64,000 bases of DNA from Actinomycetota bacterium (GTDB taxonomy: Bacteria; Actinomycetota; Actinomycetes; S36-B12), in NCBI GenBank assembly GCA_030650795.1, contig JAUSDJ010000017.1, forward strand, positions 260,077-324,076. The letters are read 5' to 3'. The position numbers and the translations under genes were made by a program. Positions 1-34,321 of this stretch are shown piece by piece (positions within the stretch are counted from its first letter, which is position 1; the number at the start of each line of letters is the position of its first letter). The notes under the pieces were generated by a model. That model did no database searches. It saw only the letters and a program-made list of their open reading frames with translations, and was not told the origin of the DNA.

Positions 1-5
1 ACAGC

Positions 6-833
6 GTGAATCCCACAATCGTCGGAATCGCATCCATGCGACGTCGATTCCGAGATGCACGTGATGAGGCTGACCTCTGGAATGTTCGCTTAGAACTTGC
101 AGTCGCATGGATGCTCGTGAAAGCAGGTATTCGTTTTCGGTTTGGCGCTCCACCCAATCCGGAGCCTGACTTCGTTCTGGAAGATTTTGGAATTGGCATA
201 GAGGTCACTCGACGCGACTATGACGGTGTAGACGATCTCGTTCAAGATCTAACCCGGCTGATCGGAACTCGATCACTCACTTTGACACTGACGTTTGACA
301 ACTACCCGTTGCAAGTTCGGAAAGCAACAAAAAACTCCATCATGCTTCGTGTGTCCCAAGCAATAGAGACAGGCAGCCAGATTGACACGATTCATGAGAT
401 CGATACTTTTACGGGCACCTTCGCACTCGCTATCGAAATTGCCCAGAAACCAGATGACAACGACGCATCGCATGTCAAAGTGGAAGTAGAATCCGCCGCA
501 CTCGCAAGAACAATGGAACACGTTGAAGAGGCGCTTCTAGCCAAGACACGCGATCAACAGAAAATCGAGCAGGCCCGATCTATGCCTACCATCCTCTTGA
601 TCGAATCATCAGATGTTGGATATGCCTACATGCGCAGCGCAGCCACTTGGGAGGCCGTGCTTAGGACTTGGATGTCAGCCGAACTCCCCTTTCTGGGTGT
701 AGGCCTAGTCCAGCGAAATGTCCTGGCCCCTGGGATGGGCTTCACAATTGTCCTGAATCCTCATGCTGACGAGATGGTGCTTGAACGTGCATCCAATGTC
801 CTGGCGCTAATTGCAGCGGTCTTTCCAGCATAG
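6..833 (+). CDS. Hypothetical protein with possible PD-(D/E)xK nuclease-like core (may be 5'-truncated by the window edge)
   Basis: 275-aa ORF. The N-terminal pattern LELAVAWMLVKAG..IRFRFG..EPDFVLED..IGIEVTRR resembles the helix-E / strand-D / strand-ExK layout, with T in place of K. The frame is open to the window edge, so the start is uncertain. Confidence 0.45.
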   Translation: MNPTIVGIASMRRRFRDARDEADLWNVRLELAVAWMLVKAGIRFRFGAPPNPEPDFVLEDFGIGIEVTRRDYDGVDDLVQDLTRLIGTRSLTLTLTFDNYPLQVRKATKNSIMLRVSQAIETGSQIDTIHEIDTFTGTFALAIEIAQKPDDNDASHVKVEVESAALARTMEHVEEALLAKTRDQQKIEQARSMPTILLIESSDVGYAYMRSAATWEAVLRTWMSAELPFLGVGLVQRNVLAPGMGFTIVLNPHADEMVLERASNVLALIAAVFPA

Positions 834-1032
834 AAGGGCTGCCGCTCATACAAGGGTTTGCCATCCTTCCTGAAATGGGGCAAAAGCCACTTCACTCCTG
901 CGAGCAATGAACATCGCCTATGCGGAGACCGAAGGCACTCATTTGGCGCCGCCTTCCGCCCAGCTGTGAGAACCTGCTTGTGGACGCTGCACGGATACAG
1001 GAAGTGTCAGCCACCTATGGTGGAGTTGTCCC

Positions 1033-4000
1033 GTGAAGAAGGGAACTGGCCGACGGACTAAACTGTCCAAATCTAACGAGAGACGTGGCCAGCGCGCAGT
1101 GGTCGACGAAATGATCCAGTCCAAGCTTCCCTATGTGCAGGCCGGCCAGAATATTCACTTGATGGACGAGGATGCCTCCCAATGGGCTTCGACGAGACAC
1201 GGAGCCAACGCTGGGCGTGGCTTCCATTATCAAGATGCCATTTCATCTTGGTACGCGGCTCAACTACTGGTCTCTGACAGTCACACGCGAGTCGTCCCCG
1301 AATCACATCGCGAAGATGCGTCCTGCGAGGGTCAGGCAGGTACGGAGGTCCAGGCCAAGTCAAGACAGGAGCGAGTAGGACTTTTTCCCGCAAGAGAAGT
1401 CGCCGAGCACATCAAGACTCTGCATGCTCGTAAGTCCCGCAATGCGGGATCAACAATCGAATTGGTACTAGAGCGAGACATCCGCGAATGCCCGCTACCG
1501 CATAGCTGCATGCGCTTAGGAGACTTGGAAGCAGACCATCCCCTTGCCATCGCTTGCAAACGTCTCTTTGAAGACGCCTCGTGGCCGAATGCAGGTTGCA
1601 GCGAGATTCGCATTCGAATCCTCTCCTTCGAGGATGCTCGTCGGGGAACAGCAGATATCGTGCAAGACACATTCAATGTAGAGCCAGCCGTTGCTGCTCG
1701 GATTGCCGCTGACTACCTCCGACTCATAGCCGATGCCGCTGACTCCAACGCAGAACGTGACTACTCACATCGCGCCGGGCTCGATCGAACGACGCTCGAG
1801 AGGGCTGCCCATCAGGCAATTGCGGAGATTGATCCAGGCTCACTGGTCGCTTCCATCAATTCTGGTGCGATTGAACCACTCGATCTCGATACTCCTGATG
1901 ACAACGCCGTCTATTTTCAGGGCATTGATGCTCAGCCGGGCCACATAGCTGCTGGCTTACCCGCGCCTCGCACAGAACAAGTCGATGCGGTCTTGGCAGC
2001 TCTATCTGAAACTCGGGCAGTATTGATTGCGGGTCCGTCTGGTTCCGGAAAATCGACTGTTCTTTGGATGACGGCGTTTGTTGAACGTCACGTCAGCTGG
2101 TATCGCGTAAATCGACTTCTATCTTCTGACGTGGAAGACATTTACAGATTCGCCGTCGGAAGGCGTCCCACGTCAGCAGCGCCGCTCGGGTTCCTGGTCG
2201 ACGGAATAGGAATTGGAGACATGGAAGCATGGGACCAAGTTCTTCGACGACTCTCACCCTTGCAAAACGTGTACCTGCTAGGGACTGCCCGCATTGAAGA
2301 CTTGTTTGCTGCGACAACTGCCGACCTTGCAACAAGAGTCGACATCGGCCTCGACGAGGGTGTCGCCGCTCGCATCTTCGAATATCTTAAGCAAGGCGGT
2401 TTGACGCAATCGGTTCATTGGCGAGAAGCATTCAATGACGCCGATGGATTGACCCTTGAATTCACGTATCAGCTAACGCAAGGAGAGCGGCTGCCGGTCG
2501 TGCTCGGCGCACAGGTTGATCGCATGGTGAGAGAAGGAGCAAGTGATGAGCTTCAACTTCTTGCACTAGTAAGTGCGGCACACACACATGGCATTGCACT
2601 CTCCGTAGAGTCCGCGCAGCAGGCAGCCGGACTTGGCGACGATGCTTTTCGCCGTGCGATGAGACGACTTAAGGATGAACATCTTGTCCTAGAAGACTTT
2701 GATTCGATACGAGGACTGCACCTGCATCGCTCGCGCGCGCTCGTTGACTCAGTGCACGCGAATCCACCACCGACCTTGACTACAACAGTGACCCGCTTGA
2801 TGGGGGTCCTGCCCGAGAGCGACCTCGTCAAACTGGTCGTAGGAGTGCTGCGCGACAACCGCGCGCTGGACGGCGCGATTATTAAGCTAGCTGCGAGCCG
2901 TACCACCACCGGATCGCCTGAACTGCTCGGGGCGCTGCTCCACGCGTTTCGAGCACTTGATTTCGTGCGCCACGCTGAGTTGTGTGCGGGAATTGTTGAG
3001 CAGGCAGCAGTCCCTCCAGCCCATTGGCCACTTGTAGTCACATCAGGATTGACGGGAATTGAATGGCCCGAGTCGCTCTTCGATTCGTCCCTAAACGAGG
3101 CCATCAACGCGCTTGGAGAAAATCGGGTCGAGTCGACCGGACTCAGAGATGCATTTATCGATGCCGTTGACCGCGCTCAAGTGGTCGAGACCGTTCTGTC
3201 TCAGAGGAGCGCGAGTGCGCTTGCTTCCCTTCTTTCTGCATGCATCGGCGTCTCGAATACAACCGTAGACGATCTCGTTGCGGCCGATTGGGATGGAACA
3301 AGCGCGGAGAGCGTACTCACTGCGTGCACTTCCGAGGAATTCGCGGGTATTGGCCACACTGCCGGGCAACTCTCGATCCCCCTTGCAGAAAAGCTGCTCG
3401 AGTACGCGGGAGGCGAGTCCCAAATCATCGAGCGGCTACTCGAGAGCTACCCGACAGTGTTTGCAGTGGGGCGCGAGCAGCACGATGGAGTCGATGTCGC
3501 TTCTGCAAAAGTCATGTTCATCCACGAAGACTTGACCCCAGATCCAAATGCACGGGCGCACGATGTCGCGAAGGTTCTGATTCGGTCTCTCCCAGGCTGC
3601 TCGAGCGCTGCGATTGAGACCGTTCGAGCAGGCGGCAAACCCTTTCAAATCGGGGACCTGACATTCGGCCAATCTGGCTTGCTTGGGCAATACGCGTTAA
3701 CTAGCACTGATGTCGATTGGAACCGTGCTCGGACAGCATTGGTGATTCATGAGCTGGGAACTATGTCGAAGGGCAACCACGCCTCAGTGGCGGCAGGATT
3801 GCTTTATCGCGCCTATGCCTACCTGACCAGCCTTGCAGACCATTGGGTAACTCGTAGCCTGGATCCAAGCAATGCGTATTGGAAGAGTTCCGAAAAGGAA
3901 CGATCGGACCTCAAAACGGACGCGGATCAATTGGCCAACCCATTGGACGGGCTAGCGCTCTTCCGCGAAATCATTCCAAGCACTGGAGCGAGAGTAACCG

Positions 4001-5130
4001 CGCAGTTTGCAGGATTCGTAGACAACGAAATGGTCCCGTCGGCGTTGGGTCTGGACTCGGCTCACACAGTGTTACATCACGTCACGGATGTAATTCCCGC
4101 AAAGATTCGCGACGGAGAATACGGTTCACTCGCTGCAGTAGCAGCTGACCTGGTGGCCACCCTTGAGGAAGTACGATCCGCAGAACATTGGGCATTGATC
4201 GGCCTTAGTGAGCCGCCTACCGTGCTTGATGATTTGAAACTTCTCTTGATCGCAATACGCGACATAGCGTTAGCACTTCAGCATGACGCGATCACTCCTG
4301 CAGACATCCGGCGAGAACGATCTGGGCCCAAGGGGCAGGTGCTTCGTAGAGTTGCAAATCTGGCCAATCGCAAGATTGAGGCTGCATCTGAAGACTTCAT
4401 ACGGGAGTTCAATGCAGATCTTCGCGCGCGTGGTTTCAATGCGAAACTTGTGCACAAGCATGCGCCAGTTGATCAGTCCTATTGGCCTCGGATCGACGTA
4501 GCAGTCATAGTCCAGTGCGAGGACGTTGCCGCATGGACAAACCAAGTTGACGCGGTAATTCAGGCCGTCTTGGATATTCGCGATGCCCATCACCTACCAC
4601 CTACATTGATTTTTCCCGAGTTCGAAGGACGGGCAGAGCCGTCACTCGGCTGTGAGGTAATCCGTCGCTCCTTCCCGTCTGTCGCTGGGTACTACCGGTG
4701 GTATCCCGAAGAACGACCAGCCCAACAAACTCACACTCTGCAAAGCGATGTCAGCACGGCAATAGACCAGTTGATTCGATGCTCAGCGATCCAAGAGTTG
4801 CGAAGTAGAAGAAATTTGGCGCCCGAGTATGAAGACTTCTATCTCGGGTCCGTCACACAATTTGCGGAAGCCTTCGAGAGAATCACGGAATACGGTGACG
4901 ACGCTTGCCTTGGCCAAATTGCTTTTGAACTCAATCGATTGGCCATGGGCGTCGATGACGAAGGAAAGGAGGATGGCAAACCAGGAAACTTTGCATGTCA
5001 GGCACTAGACCTGCTCTCGGCCCCTTCCGACCCAGAGTCGTTGGGCGAAGGTGTAGTTATAGGCCTTCTGACACTCGCTGCCGTGCAATGGATGCACAAT
5101 TCAGACAAAGCGATCGAACTATTCGGATAG
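1033..5130 (+). CDS. Avs-like STAND NTPase with N-terminal Cap4/DUF4297-type nuclease domain
   Basis: 1365-aa ORF with a GTG start preceded by GGAG (1022-1025). The N-terminus has GRGFHYQD (aa 61-68), E90, ED (94-95) and VQAK (106-109), typical of DUF4297/Cap4 nucleases. Walker A is GPSGSGKST (aa 334-342, nt 2032-2058), Walker B is LGFLVDG (D390), and LLGTAR, a GxP-like DGLTLEF and a winged-helix-like RRLKDEHLVLED..LHLHRS follow. The C-terminal ~750 aa is a long helical region. Confidence 0.6.
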   Translation: MKKGTGRRTKLSKSNERRGQRAVVDEMIQSKLPYVQAGQNIHLMDEDASQWASTRHGANAGRGFHYQDAISSWYAAQLLVSDSHTRVVPESHREDASCEGQAGTEVQAKSRQERVGLFPAREVAEHIKTLHARKSRNAGSTIELVLERDIRECPLPHSCMRLGDLEADHPLAIACKRLFEDASWPNAGCSEIRIRILSFEDARRGTADIVQDTFNVEPAVAARIAADYLRLIADAADSNAERDYSHRAGLDRTTLERAAHQAIAEIDPGSLVASINSGAIEPLDLDTPDDNAVYFQGIDAQPGHIAAGLPAPRTEQVDAVLAALSETRAVLIAGPSGSGKSTVLWMTAFVERHVSWYRVNRLLSSDVEDIYRFAVGRRPTSAAPLGFLVDGIGIGDMEAWDQVLRRLSPLQNVYLLGTARIEDLFAATTADLATRVDIGLDEGVAARIFEYLKQGGLTQSVHWREAFNDADGLTLEFTYQLTQGERLPVVLGAQVDRMVREGASDELQLLALVSAAHTHGIALSVESAQQAAGLGDDAFRRAMRRLKDEHLVLEDFDSIRGLHLHRSRALVDSVHANPPPTLTTTVTRLMGVLPESDLVKLVVGVLRDNRALDGAIIKLAASRTTTGSPELLGALLHAFRALDFVRHAELCAGIVEQAAVPPAHWPLVVTSGLTGIEWPESLFDSSLNEAINALGENRVESTGLRDAFIDAVDRAQVVETVLSQRSASALASLLSACIGVSNTTVDDLVAADWDGTSAESVLTACTSEEFAGIGHTAGQLSIPLAEKLLEYAGGESQIIERLLESYPTVFAVGREQHDGVDVASAKVMFIHEDLTPDPNARAHDVAKVLIRSLPGCSSAAIETVRAGGKPFQIGDLTFGQSGLLGQYALTSTDVDWNRARTALVIHELGTMSKGNHASVAAGLLYRAYAYLTSLADHWVTRSLDPSNAYWKSSEKERSDLKTDADQLANPLDGLALFREIIPSTGARVTAQFAGFVDNEMVPSALGLDSAHTVLHHVTDVIPAKIRDGEYGSLAAVAADLVATLEEVRSAEHWALIGLSEPPTVLDDLKLLLIAIRDIALALQHDAITPADIRRERSGPKGQVLRRVANLANRKIEAASEDFIREFNADLRARGFNAKLVHKHAPVDQSYWPRIDVAVIVQCEDVAAWTNQVDAVIQAVLDIRDAHHLPPTLIFPEFEGRAEPSLGCEVIRRSFPSVAGYYRWYPEERPAQQTHTLQSDVSTAIDQLIRCSAIQELRSRRNLAPEYEDFYLGSVTQFAEAFERITEYGDDACLGQIAFELNRLAMGVDDEGKEDGKPGNFACQALDLLSAPSDPESLGEGVVIGLLTLAAVQWMHNSDKAIELFG

Positions 5131-5355
5131 GAAGAATCCTCTGAATAGGTGCCCGAATTCAAACGCCTTCAATACTGAATCATTCGCAAATTGACGAAGA
5201 TCCTTAGTTTCGCGCGGTCAGCCAGGTATGCATTGGACCTGCCCCCAAGTCACAGATCCCGCACAAAGCGCGGCATGAACGCGGCGAACTTAGAGCCGCT
5301 CCTCCCTACATGCATCCCTGCAGGCCATTGTCAGGAAATGCTCTCCCGATTGGAG

Positions 5356-5387
5356 ATCGTGTGAGATTTGAGTGGCATCGTGTGAGA
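5356..5387 (+). repeat. Direct repeat ATCGTGTGAGA x2 spaced 21 bp start-to-start
   Basis: Exact 11-mers at 5356-5366 and 5377-5387 lie in the gap between the STAND gene and the T1-peptidase-like gene. Confidence 0.5.
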
Positions 5388-5509
5388 CGCCTCGCACATA
5401 GGTGAGAGAACCCGCGCTCGTATCGGATACCAAGTCCGATACACCTTTAGCGTCCAGCAGAGGACGTAGAGCGTCAGGCGTGGCGATTGCGAACTGCAAT
5501 ACTTTTCCG

Positions 5510-6298
5510 GTGACTCTCATCGTGTCGGCCATCAGCGACTTTGGGGTGGTCCAAGCATCAGATTCGAATATCGTTCAAAGCCTGCCCGTTGCGGCCACCA
5601 CCGATGGCGAGAAAGTATTCGGACTCCCGTTTGCTCCTGCAGCTATCGCTGTTGCTGGTACGTATCGCGTCGGGATACTGCGCATGGATGAATGGATGCC
5701 TTCCGCAATTGCCGACTTCCAGGTAGGAACCAGTGTGAATCCCGTTGGCGCATTTGCTGAATATCTGGCCACTCGTCTTGAAAACGAACTCACCGAAAGG
5801 CAATGGGGCGAACCGACAGTGTTGCAAATCGTTGGCTACGAAGGTGACGCGAAAAATAGCCAACACCCAGTTTTGTACCACCTTCGCAATGTTGACCGCA
5901 TAGATCCAAATACCGGGAACTACGTTGGCATTAGTAACAAATTTCAAGTCACTGAGGACTTCTGGCTCAGAGATCATGACCCGGTGCGCAGTCCGGGTGC
6001 GCACAATCAATTTCGAGTGCAGTTCTACTTCAATGGCTCAACAGCAGGTCGGACTGTCTTCGGACGGCACTTAATTGAAATGTTCGGAATAATTTGGAGT
6101 GATGCCTCCAATGAGTTCAGGTCACCAAGGAATCTCTACGAACTCACTGAATTCATGAAGATTCTCATCCAAACGATAGGCACGCTGTATTCCATTAGCG
6201 ACTACGTCATGCGTCCAGTGGGCGGTCCTCCACAAATGTGGGCCATACCTCAACCAAATGGTGCTGTAGAGCTCTGGGCCGAAGCGAAGGCGACGTGA
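5510..6298 (+). CDS. Proteasome/HslV/Anbu-like (peptidase T1) Ntn-hydrolase-fold protein; start uncertain (ORF is open from 5402)
   Basis: An in-frame GTG at 5510 gives (M)TLIVSAISDFGVVQASDSNIV...GEKVF..AIAVAGT. That places Thr1, Asp17 and Lys34 as in the proteasome beta / HslV catalytic arrangement, close to the Anbu-type TYC..G.VF.SDSR N-terminus as I recall it. Later LQIVGYEGD..PVLYHLRNV, FNGSTAG and GGPPQMWAI..NGAVE fit the beta-subunit fold order with a ~45-aa insertion. No clear RBS is visible. Confidence 0.5.
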   Translation: MTLIVSAISDFGVVQASDSNIVQSLPVAATTDGEKVFGLPFAPAAIAVAGTYRVGILRMDEWMPSAIADFQVGTSVNPVGAFAEYLATRLENELTERQWGEPTVLQIVGYEGDAKNSQHPVLYHLRNVDRIDPNTGNYVGISNKFQVTEDFWLRDHDPVRSPGAHNQFRVQFYFNGSTAGRTVFGRHLIEMFGIIWSDASNEFRSPRNLYELTEFMKILIQTIGTLYSISDYVMRPVGGPPQMWAIPQPNGAVELWAEAKAT

Positions 6299-6590
6299 AA
6301 CTGTTGGACTGGTCCAGGCCCGTCGACTTGAGCCTGCTGGGGACTGCACCGAGTTCGATTGCCCCTTGACCCTTGAGGATTTGTGCTTCTGCTTATCCGC
6401 AAGCGTAGGTTGCGTCTGAGCCTGCGAGAGGATGTCGCGAGACTGATACTGATCTGACCATGCAACTTGGCGACGTTACCGGCCAAGCGCGACTTCGGCC
6501 CACCCAGCCGCTTCGAAGACTCTGTTGACACGCTGGGAAACCGTCGAGGATTGACGTGACAACCACACTGAATGACTGCATTCGTTGGGA

Positions 6591-9500
6591 TCATCCCGCC
6601 ATGCCCAAGCCTTGGTCGGGGCGCGGGCTCAGCGGGAGGGGACGCCGTAGGGCAGCGTGCGCGGTGGGCTGCTCGATGAATCCGCGTTGGGACATGCGCT
6701 CGGCAGTCATGGCAATGACCGCGTCACGGCGGGCATCAGGTCCGGCCGCCATCAGGGCGGCGGCTTGCTCTCCGTCGGCGATGTCCGCGATATTCACCAC
6801 CGCAAGCACGTCGTTTCGATGGCGGGTGAAGGCGACATAGGCGCTGGACATGTCGCGGTCCGGACCGACGTCGATCACCAGCGAGTCCACGGTCTGGCCT
6901 TGGAGTTTGTGCGTGGTCATGGCGTACCCATGGCGCGCGTTGCGCATGACCTGCAGCGCCGTCAGATGACTCGTGCAGACCTTGTCGCCGTCGCGGTACG
7001 CGATCTCGATGCCCTTGTCGTCGACTGAGGCGACCACTGCTCGGGTGCCATTGGACAGGGATCGGTTTTGGCCTCGGGTGATGTTCTTCGTGATCACGAT
7101 CTGGTCCCCGATAGCGATGCTTCTAGTAAGGCCTCGGTCGCGGAAGATGACATCGCCGCCGGTGATCCAGCCGCGGTTTCGTGCTTCGACCCGAGCCAGA
7201 GTGTTGAGAATCTCGACTTGGTCATTGCGGTCTGATTCCAGTCCAGTTGCATGGAGTCGTTCCAGTGGCTCCGGACAGCCCTCGGCGCGCTCAGCCCAGG
7301 CTGAGATGAGGACACGCTCGGCTTCGGTCTGGCTCGCAACGACGACAAGTTGCCCGGCATCTGCGAGCTTGAGCAGGGCCTGCTCGGGGTCACCGTCGCG
7401 TAGGAAGGCTGCGCATTCTCGGCCGACGTCGGTGCGTTGACGGAGGTTTTCGACGAGTTCAGCGCCAGGTCGGGATTCGTGAAATTGCCGGAAGAGGCCG
7501 GAGGGTCCGACCGGTTGGAGTTGGCGGTGATCGCCGATGAGGGTGACGGTGATGTCGTTGTCGGCAGCCCATTCCAGAACCGTGGCCATGTCGGTTGCCG
7601 GGATCATGGAGGCCTCGTCGATGACGAGATGATCCATCTGGGGCAAGGAGAAGCGTGTGCATATTCGTTGCGCCAGTGCTCGCTCTCGTCGACGCCCAGA
7701 ACGCGCGAGTTCGTCTGCCTTGATCCGGATCGGGTCTTGCGGATCTCGAGCGAAGTTGATGCGCATGGTGAGCCAGGTGACCGTGCCCGCCTGAACGCCG
7801 GCGGTGTCGCGCAAGGCCTGTGCCGCAATCGCGGCGACGCACACCCCGTAGACGCGCTGGCCACGTGCGGCCAGAACAGTCCTGGCCGCGTCGATTGCCG
7901 TGGTCTTACCCGAGCCAGCTGCCCCGATCACGGTTGAGACACTGTCACGGCCGGTCGTCATCTGGGTGAATAAAGCGAGCTGTCCGGGCGTGAAACTGAG
8001 GCTCTGTTGTGTCCAGCCGCTCAGCTCGCGCCACTGCTCAAGACCCAAGAGGGCTGCTTCGGGATCGAGGGCGTGCTTGTTCTGCTCAGAGGCTGCAGCG
8101 AAGGCCTCGCAAGCTCGGCGCTCCGCGTCGGCGATGCGGTTTGAGGCGTGCTTGCGCACCCCAACTCGCCCACGGGCAGTGACCTCCCCGGTGGTGAATT
8201 CACGCGCAACGACCTCCGACAACATGGCCCGGACCTGCTCTTCAGACCAGTCGTGCGGCGCGAACGCGCGAACGGCGGCCTCAATGCGGGCAGTGATCTC
8301 AGCGCCCTTGTTCTCACACACAATCTCCTCCACCGTCCGCGCCCAGAAGTCCACATCCCAGGCCCGGGGCTGCTGAGCGAAGTCAAGAGGGACGGCGCCA
8401 AAAGCAGAGCCTAGGTCGATCCCGAACTCATCAGCGCGGTCGATCATCCGGGCCCGGACCTGGCCCCAAGTCAGGGTCTGCTCGCCCTTGGCGCTAGTGA
8501 CCTTCCGCTTGGCACGAGAATCCAAAACCTGAAGCCTCGCGCGAGTCACGCCGACTGATTCCTCGTGCAGTGACTCCAGGGTTTCCCCGTGCACGCGTGC
8601 CTGCGCCTGGGAATAGAAGGCCATGAGATCCGTGTCGGCGCCGATGACCTCCCACTGGCGGTCGGCGAGGTCGAACTCCCATCCGGTCACGAGCCCTCGC
8701 TGCGTCGACAACTGGCGCAAGCATCGCTCGAATTGAGCTTGCAACCACCACGAATGATTGACCAAGTCCGCTCCCCCGGTTGCCATCGTGCGCTCCACGC
8801 CATCCACGCACACAACCCGGTTGGGGATCATCACGTGCCCGTGCAAGTGTGGGTCCAGTTCACGCGAGTACGACTCGATCGACACCGTCGCTGAGTAGCC
8901 CAGACCCCGAATCGGGAGGGACTTCTGCCCGTCGCCCTCGTGCCCTGCGCGCCCGTGAGCAACCCGGGCCATCAGCCCATCTGCGGCCTGACGGGCAGCA
9001 TCGCGGACCGTGGCAAGCCACTGCTCGCGCGTGGATGGATCGGCGACGAAGGCGGCAACACTGAACGACTTGGGGCACGTCAAGGTCAGCTCGTAGCCCG
9101 CGTTGCCAACGACACTGGTCTCCTCGGACTGCTCCAGGACGCGACCCCAGATCCACTCCCCGAGCTTCTTGTCTGACAGGGAATAGTCCAATGGCTTGCC
9201 GTCGAATACTTGCTGCTGGCAAGACTCTTCGAGGGCTCGATGGTGTGCACCGAGAAGACGCATCACCTCCTCCCGATCGAACTGCACGGGCGGCGGCTCG
9301 AACTCCAAGCCCTGCCGGTCCCGGGCCCAGTACATCGCCCAGGCGTGTTCATTCGAACGCAGCAGAGCCTCCGCCGTACGGATCACGACGGTGCCGTTCG
9401 ATCGGCCGGCAGCACGCGCAACGGAGCGCAACTGCGACGACAGGTTCCGCTTTGGCCAAAGATCTTCAGGGTGAATCTCCGCCAATTCACAGGCTTCCTT

Positions 9501-9860
9501 GATGACCGAGAAGTAGGGGCCCGCGGCGATACGGGCCTGACGATTTCGCTCCGTTCGTACGCGAACTCGCTCACCGGTTTGCCGGTCAATTCCATACATC
9601 GCGTCACGCACAATGCGGCCGTCGGCTAGCGTCAGCTGCTCTCCTGGGCGATAAGCCAACCTCGCGGCCGTGACCCCCTCGCCGAGGAACCAGACCTGCC
9701 TCGAGTCGACGGATTCCGACCCCAATCGGTAGTCGACTTGGGCCTCCCGGGCAGCCACGGAGGCAGACTTATCCGGTGTGATTCCGCCCAATCTGTAACC
9801 CACCTGCGCACCCAAATCGGCGCCGTGAGTGAGCATTTGGCAATGACCGCTGCGAGCCAT
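6591..9860 (-). CDS. MOBF-type conjugative relaxase fused to a RecD-like helicase (TraA/TrwC family)
   Basis: 1089-aa ORF. It has the relaxase histidine motif YSRELDPHLHGHVMIPN and a helicase Walker A VIGAAGSGKTT, followed by DEASM and a C-terminal UvrD/RecD-like region (HKLQGQTVD). Confidence 0.85.
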   Translation of the reverse strand: MARSGHCQMLTHGADLGAQVGYRLGGITPDKSASVAAREAQVDYRLGSESVDSRQVWFLGEGVTAARLAYRPGEQLTLADGRIVRDAMYGIDRQTGERVRVRTERNRQARIAAGPYFSVIKEACELAEIHPEDLWPKRNLSSQLRSVARAAGRSNGTVVIRTAEALLRSNEHAWAMYWARDRQGLEFEPPPVQFDREEVMRLLGAHHRALEESCQQQVFDGKPLDYSLSDKKLGEWIWGRVLEQSEETSVVGNAGYELTLTCPKSFSVAAFVADPSTREQWLATVRDAARQAADGLMARVAHGRAGHEGDGQKSLPIRGLGYSATVSIESYSRELDPHLHGHVMIPNRVVCVDGVERTMATGGADLVNHSWWLQAQFERCLRQLSTQRGLVTGWEFDLADRQWEVIGADTDLMAFYSQAQARVHGETLESLHEESVGVTRARLQVLDSRAKRKVTSAKGEQTLTWGQVRARMIDRADEFGIDLGSAFGAVPLDFAQQPRAWDVDFWARTVEEIVCENKGAEITARIEAAVRAFAPHDWSEEQVRAMLSEVVAREFTTGEVTARGRVGVRKHASNRIADAERRACEAFAAASEQNKHALDPEAALLGLEQWRELSGWTQQSLSFTPGQLALFTQMTTGRDSVSTVIGAAGSGKTTAIDAARTVLAARGQRVYGVCVAAIAAQALRDTAGVQAGTVTWLTMRINFARDPQDPIRIKADELARSGRRRERALAQRICTRFSLPQMDHLVIDEASMIPATDMATVLEWAADNDITVTLIGDHRQLQPVGPSGLFRQFHESRPGAELVENLRQRTDVGRECAAFLRDGDPEQALLKLADAGQLVVVASQTEAERVLISAWAERAEGCPEPLERLHATGLESDRNDQVEILNTLARVEARNRGWITGGDVIFRDRGLTRSIAIGDQIVITKNITRGQNRSLSNGTRAVVASVDDKGIEIAYRDGDKVCTSHLTALQVMRNARHGYAMTTHKLQGQTVDSLVIDVGPDRDMSSAYVAFTRHRNDVLAVVNIADIADGEQAAALMAAGPDARRDAVIAMTAERMSQRGFIEQPTAHAALRRPLPLSPRPDQGLGMAG

Positions 9861-10091
9861 CTTCAGGCCCCCGATCCGGCAGGCCGGACGGCGCGGAGCA
9901 TCTGGATGCCAGCCCGGGAGGTGTTCGTGGGCTTGTGGCTTGTGTCCTTGTCCTTGGGGTCTTCGTGGTGCTCTGGTGTGTGATTGATATTCATAGTTTC
10001 GGTGTCCTTCGTGGTCGTGTGGTCTGGTCTGCTTCTCGTGATTCGATGCCTTGAGTTCTTGGTCTCAGCTTTCACAACGGTGTCGGGGCCC

Positions 10092-10163
10092 CGGTACCTC
10101 GCATTCACGCCGGCCAGGGCGACGCGAACTTGCGAGGTACCGACCCTGCTAACACCGTTGAAC
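10092..10163 (+). promoter_or_regulatory. Island intergenic motif copy A, plus a 12-bp perfect inverted repeat (CGGTACCTCGCA 10092-10103 / TGCGAGGTACCG 10131-10142)
   Basis: GCGAACTTGCGAGGTACCGA...CACCGTTGAAC at 10124-10163 matches copies at 24666-24704 and 31196-27. It lies between the divergent relaxase gene and the 10210 ORF. Confidence 0.5.
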
Positions 10164-10209
10164 GAAGTGACGGGTCGACACCGGCCCGCGCCGACAAGGA
10201 GTTCCACTC

Positions 10210-10497
10210 GTGAACAATGACTTCCTGACCGCATCGACCATCGCCGCCAAGGACCTCACGGCGGCGCAGGCCAAGCGAGCCGGGCTCGAGGCCAAGGCCA
10301 GCGATCGTCTCGCCAGGGCTCAAGACCGGTACCCCCTCGATCTCACCGACGCTCGCCGCGTCGAAGCTGAGGCGTGGAAGCAGCTCATGGAGGTACCGGG
10401 CATGACGGCCGCTACCGCGGCGCATATCGGAGGGACCACGGCTATCAAGGTCAGCCGCTGGATTTCCTCCCGTGTCGAGGACTCGGCATGCAGCTGA
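10210..10497 (+). CDS. Hypothetical 95-aa protein (possible small HTH or relaxosome accessory protein)
   Basis: The GTG start has AAGGAG 8 nt upstream (10196-10201). The gene is divergent from the relaxase, and the segment AAHIGGTTAIKVSRWIS looks HTH-like. Confidence 0.5.
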   Translation: MNNDFLTASTIAAKDLTAAQAKRAGLEAKASDRLARAQDRYPLDLTDARRVEAEAWKQLMEVPGMTAATAAHIGGTTAIKVSRWISSRVEDSACS

Positions 10498-11207
10498 CGC
10501 CGCGCACTCTGGGCATGGCACTTGGTGCCTGCCTGGCAGGCGGCCTGGTCGTTGGCGCCGCGACGGTCATCAGCCCCAGCATCGGAGTCATCAACCCCAC
10601 CCCGGAAGCGGCTGCTTTATCGCCCGCCTATTCCGAGGCCGAACTCGGCGACATCCAGGTCACCTACCCAACACCCTCGATGCGGGTCGCCACACCGATG
10701 TCCGCCGCAACCCCGCCAGATGCGCAGCCCAACGCGCCCTTGTCAACAACCGCGCCGACTAGCGCCTCCACGCCAACACTCCCTGCACCGAAGGCAACAC
10801 CGACGGCGTCTCAAGTCACGAAGGACCCCAGCAGTCGGGATAGGACCAAGCCGACAGCAACGAAAACGAGCACCCCGACAAGACCCACCCTGCCGCCGAC
10901 ACAGGCGCCCAAGCCGACAGCAATTGCACCAGCAGTCCAGGGCTCAGCGACGCACCCGCTCCATGACTGGAAGCTGCCACATCTTGGTATCGGCGTGACT
11001 GACATCAGCGCACCGACACTGTCCTCAGGTGCACGTGTGCACGTCACGGTCATGTGTTCTCCCAGTTCAGCATGCAACGCCAGTGGCACTTCCCTGGCGA
11101 TCTCTCCGGAGGCGACGCACGTCTCAGTCACGTGGAGCGCGCCCGCTGACTCCAAGTGGCCCGCCTGGTCCCTCACGCGCGCCTACATGGGATCCGCTGC
11201 CGGGTGA
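10488..11207 (+). CDS. Membrane-anchored or secreted Pro/Thr-rich protein
   Basis: The ATG overlaps the stop of the upstream ORF. An N-terminal hydrophobic segment (LGMALGACLAGGLVVGAATVI) is followed by a long P/T/A/S/K-rich linker and a C-terminal domain. Confidence 0.55.
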   Translation: MQLTPRTLGMALGACLAGGLVVGAATVISPSIGVINPTPEAAALSPAYSEAELGDIQVTYPTPSMRVATPMSAATPPDAQPNAPLSTTAPTSASTPTLPAPKATPTASQVTKDPSSRDRTKPTATKTSTPTRPTLPPTQAPKPTAIAPAVQGSATHPLHDWKLPHLGIGVTDISAPTLSSGARVHVTVMCSPSSACNASGTSLAISPEATHVSVTWSAPADSKWPAWSLTRAYMGSAAG

Positions 11208-11256
11208 GTGTCGGACCGGACACCTACTCTGCCTGGATCGTCACGACGGAGGTTCC

Positions 11257-11475
11257 ATGATTGCGCTGATCGTCCTGGTCGCCCTGTCGCTCGTCATCGG
11301 CGCGGTGGTGGGGGCCACTGCACTGCTTGTGGCCGTCGGCAAGTTAATTTTCCGAGCGATGCGAAGCATCCCAGTCGAGACTCAGCCAGGGAGTGTGTCA
11401 GGGGTTCACCCGCCCCCTGTGGAGGTCGAGCAGGAATTCAATCGGATCATTTCGCGCGAATGGCCCAGCCCCTAG
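11257..11475 (+). CDS. Small single-pass membrane protein (72 aa)
   Basis: The ATG has GGAGG 4 nt upstream. The product begins MIALIVLVALSLVIGAVVGATALLVAVG, a transmembrane helix. Confidence 0.5.
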   Translation: MIALIVLVALSLVIGAVVGATALLVAVGKLIFRAMRSIPVETQPGSVSGVHPPPVEVEQEFNRIISREWPSP

Positions 11476-11481
11476 CACCAA

Positions 11482-13632
11482 CTACTGCGACGCTGACTCG
11501 CTGTCACGGATGTAAGTCACGCCGAAGCCAACGACTTGTCGGAACTCCTGACGGCGTGCGGCCACGTCGAACTGGCCCCCCGAGCCCTTCTGGAAGATGT
11601 CAAGGCCGCGACCGAGCAGCACCTTCCAGCCACTGTCGGTGCGGATCGACCGGTCGTGAACTGTGTCGTCCCACACGACGTTGAACTTGATACCGACCGA
11701 CGCGGCGCCATCCTGGATGTCCTTGAGCATGAGGAGGTGCTGTTGCTGGAACTCGCCCTTGTCTTCCTTGGTTACGAGCCTCACGGCAATCTCGTCAGCC
11801 GGGTCCTTGCCCGAGGCCAGAAGCGCGAGCAGGTCTACGAGGTTCCGACCCTGGTGCGGCAGGCGAACGTACGGGTCGACGATGGTGATTTCGGTCGCGC
11901 CGCGCAGGTACGGCAACAGCAAGGTCTCGTACGAGACGCCGCGCTGGTTCTCCTGGAACTCGCGGTGGCCCTCGAACAACGGCTCGGTCTTCGGTCCAAC
12001 CTCTGCAGGAGCAGCGCCGGTCGAGAGCACCGCGTCGGTGGTGCTAATAGACGACTCCTCGGCTTGGTGCTGGTGGTAGTACGCCGGATACTCGTCTTCC
12101 TCGAGGGTCGAAACTGCGTGCCAATCGCCTCCCTTGTCGTAGTAGCCAAACTTCACGTTGACCATGGTGCCGTCGATACGAAGGATCTGGTCCTTGACTC
12201 TCTTGCGCCCTTCGATGGCGAACCGCAGGATCTCCTCGATTTCCTTTTTAGCCGCCTCACCCTGCGGATACAAGATCTTCATCAGACCTGAGAACGTCTT
12301 GTGGATGCCGTCACGGTCGCGGGTGGAGATGTCTGAGCCCAAAGTGAAGTACTGCTGGTACCGGTCGGAGTAGTCGGCGTCGCGCATCGACTTGAGCACC
12401 TCTGCGATGTAATCGACGACGAAACCGTAGCCGTTAGAGAACATCTCGCCGCGGATCGTGTCGACCTCCCACCCGGGGATGTAGCAGTGCAGCCGATCGA
12501 GGAATGCCGAGTCGTGGTAGCTCTCAGGGAGTTCGTCGAATAGGTCCGAGTGTTTCAACATGAAGGGAACGTTGTGGGAAGTGTTGCCTACAAACACCAT
12601 TGATGCTTCGGCTCCCAAGGTCTCTACTCCGCGGGAGAAGGTCTTGTTCGCCATGTAGTTCTTCATGATGTCGACAAGGGCTTTATCGGTGCGCTTCTTC
12701 TTACCAGCGAACTCGTCGAACGCAACGACGTCCCAGTAGCCGACCAAGCCGATACGGCCGTTCGAGTTGTTGACGAAGAGCTTCGGAACCGTGACTTCGC
12801 CACCGGAGATCAGCATTCCGTGGGGCGAGAATTCCGAGAAGATGTGTGACTTGCCGGTGCCCTTAGGGCCGAGTTCGATGAGGTTGTAGTTTCGCTCGAC
12901 GAACGGAATCAGGCGGACGAGCTGGATGAGTTTGGCCCGGCGACCGAAAAGTTCAGGGTTGAAGCCGATGGACTGGATGAGAAGGTCGATCCATTCATCC
13001 GTCGTGAATTGGCGACGGGCAGTTACGTATCCGTCGAAGTCGAAGTTGGAGAGTTGAATCGGCTTAATGGATCCCAGGATCCAAGGCACGAAGTGAGGAC
13101 TGTCGCTGTGTGAGTACTCGATGTCGCAGATGCACCACACGCCACCTACCAACAACTTCGGATGGCTCTTGATGATCGCTGGCGAGACCAGCACCTGCTT
13201 GATGCCGAGGTTGGCAAACTCGGCTTCGTAGGTGTCCTCCTTGTCGTTGAGTTGCACCTGCACCTTGTCAATGATGCGGTAGCGGCCCTTTTCGCGAATG
13301 TTCGACTTCACCAGTTCGGCCCGGTTCCGGTGCACGTAGTGGTCGGCAAGGATCTTGCGTACGCTCTCGATTCCCGACTGGATCGTTGCCTCGTCGTCCG
13401 AGGCTGCGTACTGGCCGAGTAGGTACTCCAACACAAACGAGGGCACGATCGCGTTGCCCTTGACAGCCTTGACGAGGTCCTTGCGAACTACTGCGCCTCC
13501 AAAGAATTCGTTGATCTTCTGGTCGAGGGCTGACTTCACTGGTGGATTCGACGCAACGGGAGCATCGATAACGCCCTCTGGATAGTCGTCGTCGAATACA
13601 TCAGATTCGGTGCGTTCGGTCATCTCAGTCAC
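11482..13632 (-). CDS. brxL: BREX BrxL (AAA+/Lon-related ATPase) with atypical C-terminal MITD1-type PLD-like domain
   Basis: 716-aa ORF and the last gene of the locus. Walker A is LGPKGTGKSH and Walker B is VVAFDEF. The C-terminal ~140 aa reads IVDPYVRLPHQGRNL...VHDRSIRTDSGWKVLLGRGLDIF. Confidence 0.8.
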   Translation of the reverse strand: MTEMTERTESDVFDDDYPEGVIDAPVASNPPVKSALDQKINEFFGGAVVRKDLVKAVKGNAIVPSFVLEYLLGQYAASDDEATIQSGIESVRKILADHYVHRNRAELVKSNIREKGRYRIIDKVQVQLNDKEDTYEAEFANLGIKQVLVSPAIIKSHPKLLVGGVWCICDIEYSHSDSPHFVPWILGSIKPIQLSNFDFDGYVTARRQFTTDEWIDLLIQSIGFNPELFGRRAKLIQLVRLIPFVERNYNLIELGPKGTGKSHIFSEFSPHGMLISGGEVTVPKLFVNNSNGRIGLVGYWDVVAFDEFAGKKKRTDKALVDIMKNYMANKTFSRGVETLGAEASMVFVGNTSHNVPFMLKHSDLFDELPESYHDSAFLDRLHCYIPGWEVDTIRGEMFSNGYGFVVDYIAEVLKSMRDADYSDRYQQYFTLGSDISTRDRDGIHKTFSGLMKILYPQGEAAKKEIEEILRFAIEGRKRVKDQILRIDGTMVNVKFGYYDKGGDWHAVSTLEEDEYPAYYHQHQAEESSISTTDAVLSTGAAPAEVGPKTEPLFEGHREFQENQRGVSYETLLLPYLRGATEITIVDPYVRLPHQGRNLVDLLALLASGKDPADEIAVRLVTKEDKGEFQQQHLLMLKDIQDGAASVGIKFNVVWDDTVHDRSIRTDSGWKVLLGRGLDIFQKGSGGQFDVAARRQEFRQVVGFGVTYIRDSESASQ

Positions 13633-13635
13633 CCC

Positions 13636-16128
13636 TTAGAAGTCAAAGTCAGTCGTGAATGAGCGCTTGATGGTGTAGTTGGCCCTTGAGAAGGCCTTCC
13701 ATTGGTTCGTATTCGGGATGGGTTCTTCCAGCCGTAGCTCGACAGCGCGGTTGTTGAAGTCGTCGGCATCTTGTGTGAGGTACAGCGTGGCGGACTGGTA
13801 CCGCTCACGCTGGTCGTCCGCGTCACTGTCGAACACCAGCACCGGCTGATCGGAGATCAGCGTCTCACCCACGTAGAGACAAAGACGAACCTGACGCAAC
13901 TGAATCTTGTCGGTCACGGCCTCCCGCTGAAGCAGCTTCACGGTGAGTTGCCCGGTCGTGATCTTGTCGGTCTCGGGCATGAGATCGACCTCGACGGGGC
14001 GGATGTCGCTCTTGCGCTTCTTGTTGACCGTGACCACAGGGACGACGATTTCCTGAAGGGAAGCGCCACCGTGCACGTATCGCGTGCCAGCGCCTGGCAG
14101 CGGAATCCGATGAATTGACTTCGGAATCTGAATGTCAATGTCCCCAGACAAGCCGACTTGCGCAGAGGTGAATGTCATGAAGGACGGTGAGGGCTTCAAC
14201 GCCCTGCCCAACACGTAACGGCGATTGGTCTTAGTAACGGCATCCCCCTGCGGAGTCTCAGAGACGTAGTAGGACTGCTCCAGCGGGATGTCTTGATAAA
14301 GGAAGCCGTGGTCGGCAGTCAGCAGAATGTTCGTCGCGTTGGCGTTCGTCCATTTCTTCACGAGGAGCAACAGCTCCCGCAAAGTCTCCTCAGCGGCCTC
14401 GAAGACGGTGCGCTCCGTCGGTGCCTTGTCGCCAGCCGCGTCGATGCGGTCGTGGTAAACGTAGAAGATCTGGTGCTGCTTATAGAGATCGCGCAGTTCG
14501 TCTCCCGGCATTGCTAGCACAGCGGCGGCGGAAAGCGCGTGGCCCTTCACCGACTGCAGAATCTTGTCGCGGTTCGCCGTGCCGTCAGTGCGCTTCCCAT
14601 CAGCCAAGACAGGCAGCGCCTCGGGGTTCAACTCCAACGCGGACTGAGGTAGTAACGCGGCCATCCCCAGTTGGGTGTAACTCGGCAACACTCCTAACAC
14701 CGCCGAGAGGGATGCGTCGAAACGGTCCTCGTTGCGGATCAGGGAAGCTAGTTCTTCCGCAACCTCGTAGCGCATACCGTCAGAGATGATGACGACCGCC
14801 TTGGTTCGTCCATCCTTGACTACCGGAGCGACATGGTTGTCGAAGAACTTGGCCTGGGGCGCGAGTGCCGCCGATTTCCATTCAGTGACCGGTTCCAGGG
14901 TCTGTTGCCAGAGCCCACCGAAATCGTAGAGGAACTTATTCGCGTACTGCTTGTCCACCTCGGCCTTGAGGGCTTCAAGCGGCTGCTGGAATTCGGCAGA
15001 TTGATACGCGTATGTGAACCAGCGGTATTGCTGATCAATACGGAACCAGTCCGACTGGTACTTCTGCAATGCGATATCGAGAGCTCCAGTCGAACTAGGC
15101 AATGCGGTAATAGCTGCTAGAAGTTCCGAGGCGCTCTGAATAGCCGCGTATAACTTGGCGTACTTATGCGTCCAAAGGCTTTCCTGACGTTGCCGCACCA
15201 CGTCGGCCACGTCGCGAGGTGTGACCGCCTGGGTTGCCACGGCGGCGGCGAGGTCGACGATGACCTTGCGGTCGATCTCCTCAAAGATCGTGATCGAGAC
15301 CAACTCGTAATAGTCGGTGTGCTCGATCTTCGACTTGATATCGAGTGCGTCGGCAGCCCGAGAGGCGAGTTTCGCCATCATGTCTTGGCTGCGAACGTCG
15401 AAGCGCAGGCTGTTGAAGTCGATGCGAATATTGCGGTAGCGCCCTGGAGTGTCAGACTCGAACTTCTCGATGGCTCGACTGAACATCCAGAGTAAGAAGT
15501 CGTCGATCGTTGGATTGGCGCTGGGGTACTTGTAGATGTTGGTGAGGCCGTCCCAGAGGAATTGGTCGAGTCCGTAGGTGACGAGATCATCGAACTTGGT
15601 GTGCTTGGTTTCAGCGTTCTCAGCGAGGAGTTCCCTAGTGATATCGGTCAATGTGTGCCCGGAGGACTTCACAAGCACCTGGCACATCTTTGCGCGCAAT
15701 TTCATAGGGTCGTCCCCAGACGACAACAACTTCTCGAGTGCCTGCTTACGCACGGCGGCTGCGAAGAATTTCTGGTGCTGCTCAATGACCGGGCCGAGCG
15801 CAAGGTCGTTGAGACCGAGTTCCTGTTGGAGCATGGACGTCTTATCGGCCGTGAATACGCCATAGGCCAACTCAAGGTCCAGCAGCCAGTTGTCGGTGCC
15901 GCCCGGCACCTCACCCGCACGGTACACAAGGTGTCTGGTGACGTGGTCGGCGAGCAGCTCGCTCTTCACTCCGAACTCGTTGCCGTGCACCCGGATGATG
16001 TTGACGTTGCCGAAGTCAAGCGCGTCGACCTCAGCGTCATACTCTCCTGACGGATCGTGCCAGAACACGACTCGTTTCCCAGCGAGTCGCTTGTCCAGGG
16101 CGTCTTTGACGGAAGTCAGGTCACTCAT
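13636..16128 (-). CDS. pglZ: BREX PglZ alkaline-phosphatase-superfamily protein
   Basis: About 830 aa from ATG 16128, which overlaps the pglX stop by 8 nt. PglZ-type motifs VVIISDGMRYEV and LLTADHGFLY are present. Confidence 0.85.
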   Translation of the reverse strand: MSDLTSVKDALDKRLAGKRVVFWHDPSGEYDAEVDALDFGNVNIIRVHGNEFGVKSELLADHVTRHLVYRAGEVPGGTDNWLLDLELAYGVFTADKTSMLQQELGLNDLALGPVIEQHQKFFAAAVRKQALEKLLSSGDDPMKLRAKMCQVLVKSSGHTLTDITRELLAENAETKHTKFDDLVTYGLDQFLWDGLTNIYKYPSANPTIDDFLLWMFSRAIEKFESDTPGRYRNIRIDFNSLRFDVRSQDMMAKLASRAADALDIKSKIEHTDYYELVSITIFEEIDRKVIVDLAAAVATQAVTPRDVADVVRQRQESLWTHKYAKLYAAIQSASELLAAITALPSSTGALDIALQKYQSDWFRIDQQYRWFTYAYQSAEFQQPLEALKAEVDKQYANKFLYDFGGLWQQTLEPVTEWKSAALAPQAKFFDNHVAPVVKDGRTKAVVIISDGMRYEVAEELASLIRNEDRFDASLSAVLGVLPSYTQLGMAALLPQSALELNPEALPVLADGKRTDGTANRDKILQSVKGHALSAAAVLAMPGDELRDLYKQHQIFYVYHDRIDAAGDKAPTERTVFEAAEETLRELLLLVKKWTNANATNILLTADHGFLYQDIPLEQSYYVSETPQGDAVTKTNRRYVLGRALKPSPSFMTFTSAQVGLSGDIDIQIPKSIHRIPLPGAGTRYVHGGASLQEIVVPVVTVNKKRKSDIRPVEVDLMPETDKITTGQLTVKLLQREAVTDKIQLRQVRLCLYVGETLISDQPVLVFDSDADDQRERYQSATLYLTQDADDFNNRAVELRLEEPIPNTNQWKAFSRANYTIKRSFTTDFDF

Positions 16129-23055: not shown

Positions 23056-23058
23056 ATG

Positions 23059-32057: not shown

Positions 32058-32285
32058 ATGGCCTCCACCTCAATGGCTGCTAACGTGGACAGCCTTCTGA
32101 CGATCGAGCAAGCAGCTGAGATCCTCGCGGTGAACACACGCATGATTCGCCGTCTCGTCGAGAGTCGGCGCATCGCCTTCGTGAAGGTGGGGAGGCATGT
32201 GCGGTTTCGCGAATCGGACCTCGTGAGCGCCATGCAAGCGTGGACGATCCAGCCGTCTGCACGATCCGTATCCCGCCGGGGCTGA
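32058..32285 (+). CDS. Excisionase-family (HTH_17) DNA-binding protein, 75 aa
   Basis: The product contains LLTIEQAAEILAVNTRMIRRLVESRRIAFVKVGRHVRFRESDL. The start is 1 nt after the upstream stop. Confidence 0.7.
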   Translation: MASTSMAANVDSLLTIEQAAEILAVNTRMIRRLVESRRIAFVKVGRHVRFRESDLVSAMQAWTIQPSARSVSRRG

Positions 32286-32374
32286 TCCGTAGGTCTCCTG
32301 TGAACGCTCGAGGCTGTATTATGAGTGACCAACGTAACGAATTTCGTAACGATAGCCACTCTTTAGGGAAATTC

Positions 32375-34245: not shown

Positions 34246-34321
34246 GGTGGGGCGGGCGGGGCTCGAACCCGCGACGACCAGATTATGAGTCCGGGGCTCT
34301 AACCAGCTGAGCTACCGCCCC
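34246..34321 (-). tRNA. tRNA-Met (anticodon CAT; a lysidine-modified tRNA-Ile2 cannot be excluded)
   Basis: The reverse complement folds as a cloverleaf: acceptor GGGGCGG/CCGCCCC, D-arm GCTCAGCTGGTTAGAGC, anticodon stem CCGGA/TCTGG with loop CTCATAA, and T-arm GCGGGTTCGAGCCCCGC. The 3' end is ACC, so CCA is only partly encoded. Confidence 0.9.

Follow-up and report, generated by a model that had tools for sequence, protein, structure and literature searches.

A reading frame at 5402..6298 on the forward strand of a 64,000-nucleotide stretch of an Actinomycetota genome (assembly GCA_030650795.1, contig JAUSDJ010000017.1; hereafter the window) raises the question of whether a mobile element rich in defence genes also carries a working relative of the proteasome, and, if it does, whether this relative acts alone or together with its neighbours. 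The frame opens with GTG and contains 298 codons. An earlier note, made from the letters of the window without database searches, had proposed that it encodes a stand-alone protein like the proteasome beta subunit, HslV or Anbu, with a Thr nucleophile. The analysis described here suggests that the gene is probably a genuine, catalytically competent proteasome-like N-terminal nucleophile (Ntn; MEROPS T1-type) hydrolase from a large single-gene family, that its translation starts at GTG 5510, that Thr1 is exposed by removal of the initiator Met, and that the protein is free of partners and travels as passenger cargo.

The coding sequence assigned to this hydrolase is 5510..6298 on the forward strand and specifies 262 amino acids (the coordinates include the stop codon). 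The identical sequence is present in NCBI as MDO8731931.1, from an Actinomycetota metagenome-assembled genome (MAG), where it is labelled 'hypothetical protein' and also starts at 5510. The position of the start was compared at the DNA level across 24 independent loci, whose alignment came from tblastn with no use of gene calls. The codon directly 5' of the Thr or Ser is a start codon in all 24, ATG in 19 and GTG in five; the start codon of one of these (L031) was settled by reading further upstream. In seven of the loci an in-frame stop lies one to seven codons upstream of the Thr/Ser start, which excludes a long propeptide. Database members with apparent N-terminal extensions always carry Met, or Val from GTG, directly before the Thr or Ser, and these are over-extended gene calls. 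Because a start codon precedes Thr/Ser at every locus and stops are found close upstream, translation is judged to start at GTG 5510, and the protein would not include the 36 codons that begin at 5402. This in-frame open stretch (5402..5509, forward strand) is most likely untranslated; it is unconserved in any homologue, and members begin with Met followed by Thr or Ser.

With the mature Thr1 taken as residue 1, the protein contains TLIVSAISDFGVVQASD(17)SN...GEK(34)VF...AIAVAG(49)T, followed by LQIVGYEGD, PVLYHLRN, FNGSTAG and GGPPQMWAI. The reading frame given in the earlier note and its order of motifs (D17, K34, AIAVAGT, LQIVGYEGD..PVLYHLRNV, FNGSTAG, GGPPQMWAI) could all be read back from the sequence. 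In what follows, residue numbers include Met1 unless called mature, conservation counts refer to 107 aligned members, and features of the gene are on the forward strand. The start codon and the adjoining ACT codon of the predicted nucleophile, Thr1 of the mature protein, occupy 5510..5515. Residue 2 is Thr in 95 members and Ser in the other 12, with nothing else observed, and it aligns in register with the Thr of HslV. Asp18, Lys35 and Gly50 are each present in all 107. Asp18 (mature Asp17; codon 5561..5563) aligns to the HslV Asp and to Glu17 of the Thermoplasma acidophilum beta subunit, and is the predicted equivalent of proteasome Asp/Glu17. Lys35 (mature Lys34, in GEKVF; 5612..5614) aligns to Lys33 of the T. 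acidophilum beta subunit and HslV, and Gly50 (mature Gly49, in AIAVAGT; 5657..5659) to the 'AG' of both, the latter being the predicted equivalent of the oxyanion-hole Gly47. Two further conserved stretches lie in the C-terminal half. Asn175-Gly176 (6032..6037; 107/107) ends the strand before helix H3, and from the order of structural elements it appears to occupy the place of the proteasome Gly128-Ser129-Gly130 turn. S230-D231-Y232 ... G238-G239 (6197..6226) follows helix H4; S230 is found in 105 members and both glycines in all of them, while position 231 is Asp in 87, Asn in 12 and Glu in four. By the same order of elements this would be the place of the proteasome Asp166...Ser169-Gly170 segment. 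The invariance of D18, K35, G50, N175-G176 and G238-G239, together with the Thr/Ser at residue 2, indicates that the pattern of motifs is not due to chance.

These residues suggest a simple route to an active enzyme. Thr and Ser at position 2 are good substrates of methionine aminopeptidase. Judging from this specificity, deformylase and methionine aminopeptidase would remove the initiator Met, as permitted by the Thr (Ser in ~11% of members) at residue 2, and Thr1 would be exposed with no autocatalytic propeptide, as in Escherichia coli HslV. The O-gamma of Thr1, activated by its own alpha-amine and by the Lys34/Asp17 pair, would then attack an amide bond, with the backbone of Gly49 forming the oxyanion hole. 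The enzyme would work with no dedicated ATPase or other co-encoded partner. The proposed assignment of Thr1 with D17 and K34 thus holds up, in that the nucleophile is positioned for exposure by initiator-Met removal and the equivalents of D17 and K33/34 are conserved.

The predicted structure agrees with this assignment. An AlphaFold2 (AF2) model built from 107 homologues reached a predicted local distance difference test score (pLDDT) of 89.9 and a predicted template modelling score (pTM) of 0.89; a model from a three-sequence alignment (pLDDT 41) was discarded. The N-terminal half of the model contains strands at 4-9, 12-17, 36-39 and 44-50, helices at 59-69 and 78-93, and strands at 103-112 and 118-126. 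The C-terminal half contains an insertion at 127-169 (a short strand and a helix), a strand at 170-175, helices at 178-197 and 209-228, and a strand at 242-247. The resulting order, beta-beta-beta-beta, alpha-alpha, beta-beta-(insert)-beta, alpha-alpha, beta, is that of proteasome subunits. A Foldseek search of the model against the PDB returned 101 matches at E<=1e-3, and the best 50 of these were exclusively 20S alpha or beta subunits, Anbu and HslV, with E values from 5e-6. Template modelling (TM) scores were 0.42-0.50 when normalised to the length of the query and reached 0.63 when normalised to that of the target. In BFVD the model matched two phage proteins best, a 'proteasome beta type-2 subunit' (TM 0.60/0.70) and one from a Gordonia phage (TM 0.58). 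Comparisons of sequence point the same way at lower significance. Proteasome subunits make up five of the seven best PDB matches to the family profile and align in register at E 0.2-2; a phmmer search of the PDB with the single protein gave chance matches, such as NEDD4 and BurrH. PF00227 (Proteasome) matches seven of 63 members below threshold, with a best E of 6.9e-4. An hhalign comparison with an alignment of real HslV sequences from 10 species (loci L038-L047) gave E 0.005 over the first 50 columns, with M1-T2, D18, K35 and G50 in register, and comparisons with individual sequences (T. acidophilum beta, E. coli HslV) were in register and statistically weak; these hhalign matches serve to support the register and not as proof of homology. 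Taken with the PDB and BFVD matches, the model supports a proteasome-beta/HslV/Anbu-type Ntn (T1-type) fold for the window protein, as the earlier note had claimed. That note had also named three outcomes as fatal to its proposal, namely profile searches that miss the Ntn/T1 fold, a Thr unable to become N-terminal, and lack of conservation of D17 and K34; each was looked for and none was found.

The protein carries a family-specific insertion, residues 127-169 (5888..6016), placed by the AF2 model between the core strands 118-126 and 170-175. An insertion of about 45 residues had been predicted, and the high-confidence model shows one of 43. It includes the near-invariant motif F-x-V-[ST]-E-D-F-W-x-R-D (residues 145-155, 5942-5974), in which E149 is present in 106 members, D150 in 102, F151 in 100, W152 in 104 and D155 in 98. 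The linker between helices H3 and H4 (W-x-F-R-P-P) is also well conserved, with W201 in 99, R204 in 105, and F203 and P206 in all 107. These family-specific elements are therefore conserved almost as strongly as the catalytic residues. The insertion may act as a substrate-binding element, and the E-D-F-W-x-R-D insertion and W-x-F-R-P-P linker together could shape a defined substrate site. Such unusually well-conserved accessory motifs are directly testable by mutagenesis.

The family is larger than a direct search indicates. A first word-indexed search with the window protein found three relatives only. A profile of these three, run against 1.84 billion cluster representatives (50% identity), identified 604 proteins at E<=1e-3, 271 at <=1e-10 and 115 at <=1e-30. 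A second indexed search with 63 members added 134 further proteins, all labelled 'hypothetical' and none with a precomputed Pfam domain. The clusters are of metagenomic origin in almost all cases, and all 20 loci found in the genome collection are MAGs. These derive from Acidimicrobiales, Acidobacteriaceae, Dormibacterota, Anaerolineales, Chloroflexia, Parcubacteria, Bacteroidales, Flavobacteriaceae, Chitinophagales, Isosphaeraceae, Planctomycetota, Bryobacterales and Bifidobacteriaceae, so that the family spans Actinomycetota, Acidobacteriota, Chloroflexota, Bacteroidota, Planctomycetota, Dormibacterota and bacteria of the candidate phyla radiation. None of the 20 genome matches is from Proteobacteria or Firmicutes. 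A search of PHROGs with the 63 members gave no meaningful match, and no member was found in INPHARED phages or PLSDB plasmids (tblastn) or in IMG/VR (pattern scan); after these empty searches the family was no longer considered phage- or plasmid-borne. A PADLOC match of the C-terminal 48 residues of the window protein to SduA (E 0.014) was treated as noise. The family is thus a sizeable addition to the proteasome-like Ntn hydrolases, with no Pfam, NCBIfam, PHROG or PADLOC model and with entries that are all 'hypothetical'. It displays a minimal maturation route, in which the start codon directly precedes the nucleophile, and annotation gains both a definition of the family and a start corrected from 5402 to 5510.

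Proteasome homologues of this general kind have been described previously. Fuchs, Alva and Lupas (2021, PMC8665760) reported 22 orphan families, among them WPH, PHI, PMI-1 to PMI-6, DAH, AAH, CPH and PPH, with no AAA+ partner or conserved genomic context; propeptides were reported only in 20S beta and HslV subunits. The window family resembles these 22 in being a prokaryotic single gene that keeps Thr1/Ser1, Asp17, Lys33 and Gly47, in having no propeptide, AAA+ partner or informative context, and in combining family-specific insertions with a sporadic phylogenetic distribution. It differs in that its main insertion lies between strands after H2 (127-169), which is not among the insertion sites listed in that study (N-terminus, S3/S4, after H1/H2, H3/H4 and C-terminus), and in that its genome matches lack the Proteobacteria and Firmicutes, unlike most of the listed families. 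The representative accessions given there match no NCBI accession of a window-family member, which is not decisive. Compared by description, the accessions, the insertion site, the taxonomy and the small number of nr members in 2020 argue indirectly, and not decisively, against membership in any of the 22. The window family may possibly be a 23rd orphan family, and its novelty is reduced by the 22 already published.

The better-characterised relatives can be compared in the same manner. Like HslV, the gene begins with Met-Thr, so that removal of Met would expose the Thr nucleophile; the N-terminal 50 residues are in register (T, D17, K33 and the 'AG' glycine), and the C-terminus is compact and without helix H5. 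However, HslV is ~175 amino acids long, is encoded beside hslU and has a GSGG motif, whereas the window protein has 262 residues, the 43-residue insertion, and N-G in place of G-S-G. No HslU or other AAA+ neighbour was found in the 24 loci, and the similarity to HslV is just E 0.005 over 50 columns. Anbu and BPH are likewise bacterial proteasome homologues with no known unfoldase, and the best PDB fold matches include Anbu chains. However, the Anbu gene shares an operon with genes for ATP-grasp and transglutaminase-like proteins, and Anbu itself has a long coiled-coil helix at the C-terminus, two features that the window family lacks, and BPH is compact and without insertions (PMC8665760). In contrast to 20S beta, there is no paired alpha-subunit gene (one family copy within +/-10 kb) and no autocatalytic propeptide, the start codon lying before the Thr or Ser. 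Connectase, a proteasome-like protein ligase of methanogens, is also a propeptide-less Thr1 homologue that acts alone and carries an insertion; that insertion confers high substrate specificity, and connectase is the functional model favoured here. It nevertheless lacks H1 and H2, has a two-helix insertion between S3 and S4, and is restricted to methanogenic archaea (PMC8665760), whereas the window protein has H1 (59-69), H2 (78-93), a short S3-S4 connection and its insertion elsewhere. By their defining features, then, the window protein is not HslV, Anbu, BPH, 20S beta or connectase.

The gene lies 379 bp downstream of a gene on the same strand (1033..5130) for a 1365-aa P-loop NTPase of an actinobacterial nSTAND5-type family, which has sub-threshold nSTAND matches. 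On its other side, a convergent gene (6591..9860, reverse strand) whose 3' end is 292 bp away encodes the MobF/TrwC relaxase-helicase of an integrated conjugative element (TrwC 5.5e-23, AAA_30 7e-39). The earlier description of a STAND NTPase as the only neighbour is therefore correct as to the NTPase and overlooked the relaxase. Relatives of the NTPase are actinobacterial proteins of 1250-1400 aa, many with PF25199 (nSTAND_NTPase5). Those at 44% and 40% identity adjoin a TrwC relaxase with no Ntn gene between, and a third has neither relaxase nor Ntn gene adjacent. The gap between NTPase and relaxase genes is 8 bp in loci L033 and L034 and 1460 bp in the window. Since the relatives abut the relaxase, the wider gap is best read as the insertion of a solitary cargo gene, the hydrolase. 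GC content is 52-56% over 1-6 kb, which holds the NTPase and Ntn genes, and 62-65% over 7-12 kb, the relaxase region; this mosaic over 1-12000 would fit cargo drawn from more than one source. A search for repeats flanking the insertion between NTPase and relaxase gave only short, chance-level matches.

The same independence from neighbours is seen across the family. In an all-versus-all BLAST of the +/-4 neighbours at the 24 loci, the only neighbours to recur were those shared by two near-identical Chitinophagales contigs. When 85 flanking proteins were scanned against Pfam and PADLOC, 73 Pfam families were identified, almost all of them once and many of them housekeeping, including FtsZ, MurG, UvrB, DnaX, peptidases and transporters; the defence-like neighbours are isolated (single methyltransferase and PDC matches). 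No AAA+ unfoldase family recurs among the 85, nor does an HslU-like or Anbu-operon partner appear. Tandem paralogues resembling an alpha/beta pair were sought within +/-10 kb and none was found, each locus having one family copy. The stand-alone status originally proposed is thereby supported over the 24 loci. In two Bacteroidota-type loci (L008 6873-7781 and L010 7073-7975) a gene for a protein of ~300 aa lies directly upstream on the same strand, with DUF4238 in the former and no Pfam match in the latter; the two proteins are not similar by BLAST, so no partner is implied. In an Aggregatilineales MAG (JBGAFZ010000001.1, L001 8068-11976) the family member, together with YhhN-family and GNAT acetyltransferase genes, is inserted between ftsW and murG of a dcw cluster that is otherwise canonical.

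Several observations weigh against the interpretation of the window gene as an active member of this superfamily. Judged by sequence alone, the protein is tied only weakly to known T1 peptidases (E 0.005 to 2), and membership is carried mainly by the predicted structure, with moderate TM scores (~0.5), and by the conserved residues. No curated sequence model recognises the protein; direct Pfam, NCBIfam and PADLOC scans gave nothing usable, and PF00227 does not reach its gathering threshold, with no match to the window protein at E<=1. The protein is an atypical member, with a profile score lowest but two among the loci and departures at near-invariant positions (H106Q, A108V, E121V, F124H and W201N, the Val at 121 being the sole one in 107), which may reflect a divergent sub-lineage or relaxed constraint. 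No Shine-Dalgarno sequence is visible before GTG 5510, and promoter and terminator scans of 4900-6800 found no sites, including no sigma-70-like promoter. These replacements, the low score and the GTG start without recognisable ribosome-binding site or promoter would suit a decaying copy, a relic on the island of a family that is itself real. The frame, however, is intact over 262 codons, every invariant residue is kept (the protein retains G12, D18, K35, G50, W62, G109, Y110, N127, Y138, N175, G176, F203, P206, G238 and G239), AF2 models the window sequence with high confidence, and leaderless or Shine-Dalgarno-less GTG starts are common in Actinomycetota. Decay thus seems unlikely, and because the invariant residues and the frame are intact the window copy is considered functional, with some small doubt. 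The second contig that carries the gene, from another run, is identical over 16.3 kb (100%) and so provides no information on selection. The missing Shine-Dalgarno sequence is also one argument for translation from GTG 5402, with a 36-residue propeptide removed autocatalytically before the Thr in the style of 20S beta, which the earlier note had offered as an alternative; moreover, the frame is open from 5402, and a metagenome gene caller placed the start on the identical contig 10 codons upstream of 5510. This alternative is nevertheless rejected as extremely improbable. The start codon directly before Thr/Ser at all 24 loci and the nearby stops at seven oppose it, no homologue has anything to match the 36 residues upstream, NCBI begins the gene at 5510, and the Gly-1 conserved in autoprocessed beta subunits is absent, as residue -1 would be Val or Met.

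With neither a propeptide nor a gating ATPase, an active copy must rely on assembly or on specificity to keep its proteolysis in check. A substrate-specific peptidase, amidase or transpeptidase is tentatively preferred over a ring-shaped general protease, with a confidence a little short of even, given the strongly conserved insertion and H3/H4 linker, the potential of H3/H4 insertions to block rings, and the precedent of connectase. No evidence separates the two, which is a further weakness of the overall interpretation. In the ring alternative, HslV- or BPH-like hexameric or heptameric (double) rings of a self-compartmentalising homo-oligomer would degrade unfolded proteins or peptides with no ATPase, and assembly rather than substrate specificity would keep the propeptide-less Thr1 harmless. 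Most characterised relatives (20S, HslV, BPH and Anbu) are ring-forming or helical and supply the best fold matches, the model contains all of helices H1-H4, through which ring contacts are made, the single copy per locus is compatible with a homo-oligomer, and proteasome subunits without a propeptide show no activity in isolation and gain it on assembly (cited in PMC8665760). Against rings stand the 43-residue insertion, the lengthened and conserved H3/H4 linker, and the lack of a C-terminal H5 helix in the model; H3/H4 insertions could prevent double-ring assembly, and the specificity of connectase comes from its insertion (Fuchs, Alva and Lupas 2021, PMC8665760). Ring formation is accordingly possible and on balance rather unlikely. 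A more ambitious version of the specific enzyme, which we regard as doubtful, is an undescribed branch of the proteasome superfamily acting as a monomeric, sequence-specific protein modifier (a connectase-like transpeptidase or a site-specific protease or amidase) with an E-D-F-W-x-R-D pocket, spread horizontally as a one-gene module; its benefit, in conflict or in a niche, might for example be to inactivate an invading or competing protein, and this part is equally doubtful. A further rival is a role as defence effector, in which a phage-sensing STAND NTPase would oligomerise and activate or recruit the Ntn protease, and host or phage proteins would be cleaved (abortive infection). The position downstream of the nSTAND5-type gene on the same strand, the other defence systems of the island (type 1 BREX and AbiEi/AbiEii) and the few members with methyltransferase or PDC matches nearby would fit such a role. 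However, an NTPase homologue is missing from all 23 other loci and no neighbour recurs among them, so that the co-occurrence of NTPase and effector known from STAND/NLR-type defence with a separate protease is absent. Many members lie among housekeeping genes (the dcw cluster, uvrB, dnaX), the NTPase relatives at 40-44% identity sit beside TrwC relaxases with no Ntn gene, a gap of 379 bp points to separate transcription, PADLOC gives no match, and the family is absent from the phage, plasmid and IMG/VR collections. A search of a library of papers turned up none that links proteasome homologues to defence islands. The effector role is therefore largely refuted and highly improbable, and the functional tie to the STAND NTPase and the island that the earlier note had implied is not supported. 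This outcome cautions against inferring function from a single defence-island neighbourhood. For the preferred substrate-specific enzyme, a ligase or protease with connectase-like specificity would be a potentially useful tool; if the protein forms rings instead, it would provide another data point on ATPase-independent proteasome relatives.

Upstream of the gene, a TANNNT-like sequence, TACTTT, is present at 5500-5505, just 4 nt 5' of GTG 5510. A leaderless transcript argued from this element was dropped because the spacing is too short. An exact 11-nt direct repeat, ATCGTGTGAGA, occurs at 5356-5366 and 5377-5387, 21 bp apart and ~125-150 bp upstream of GTG 5510, and could be an operator-like site or due to chance.

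The gene's location inside a defence island, as first proposed, is confirmed by the remainder of the window, and the genes found there place it on an integrated conjugative element with much defence cargo. A complete type 1 BREX system (BrxA, BrxB, BrxC, PglX, PglZ and BrxL; 11482-24296, reverse strand) and DUF4192 and ArdC-like genes lie beyond the relaxase. An AbiEi/AbiEii toxin-antitoxin pair (32240-33945, forward strand) lies next to a tRNA-Met (34246-34321, reverse strand), which probably marks both where the mobile element integrated and its right-hand boundary; beyond ~38 kb the genes are of the chromosomal core (dnaG, dGTPase, PPDK, dus and glyS). The identical contig (L032) adds a type IV secretion system coupling protein upstream. 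The nSTAND5-type NTPase recurs beside TrwC/MobF relaxases on actinobacterial integrative elements (L033/L034 5001-12639; L035 1-9191) with an integrase nearby, and this pairing could represent defence cargo or a role in transfer. The BrxL of the window (11482-13632, reverse strand) consists of BrxL_N and BrxL ATPase domains followed by a C-terminal MIT_C (phospholipase-D-like) domain at 564-708 (E 1.5e-40), and the same arrangement is found on L032.

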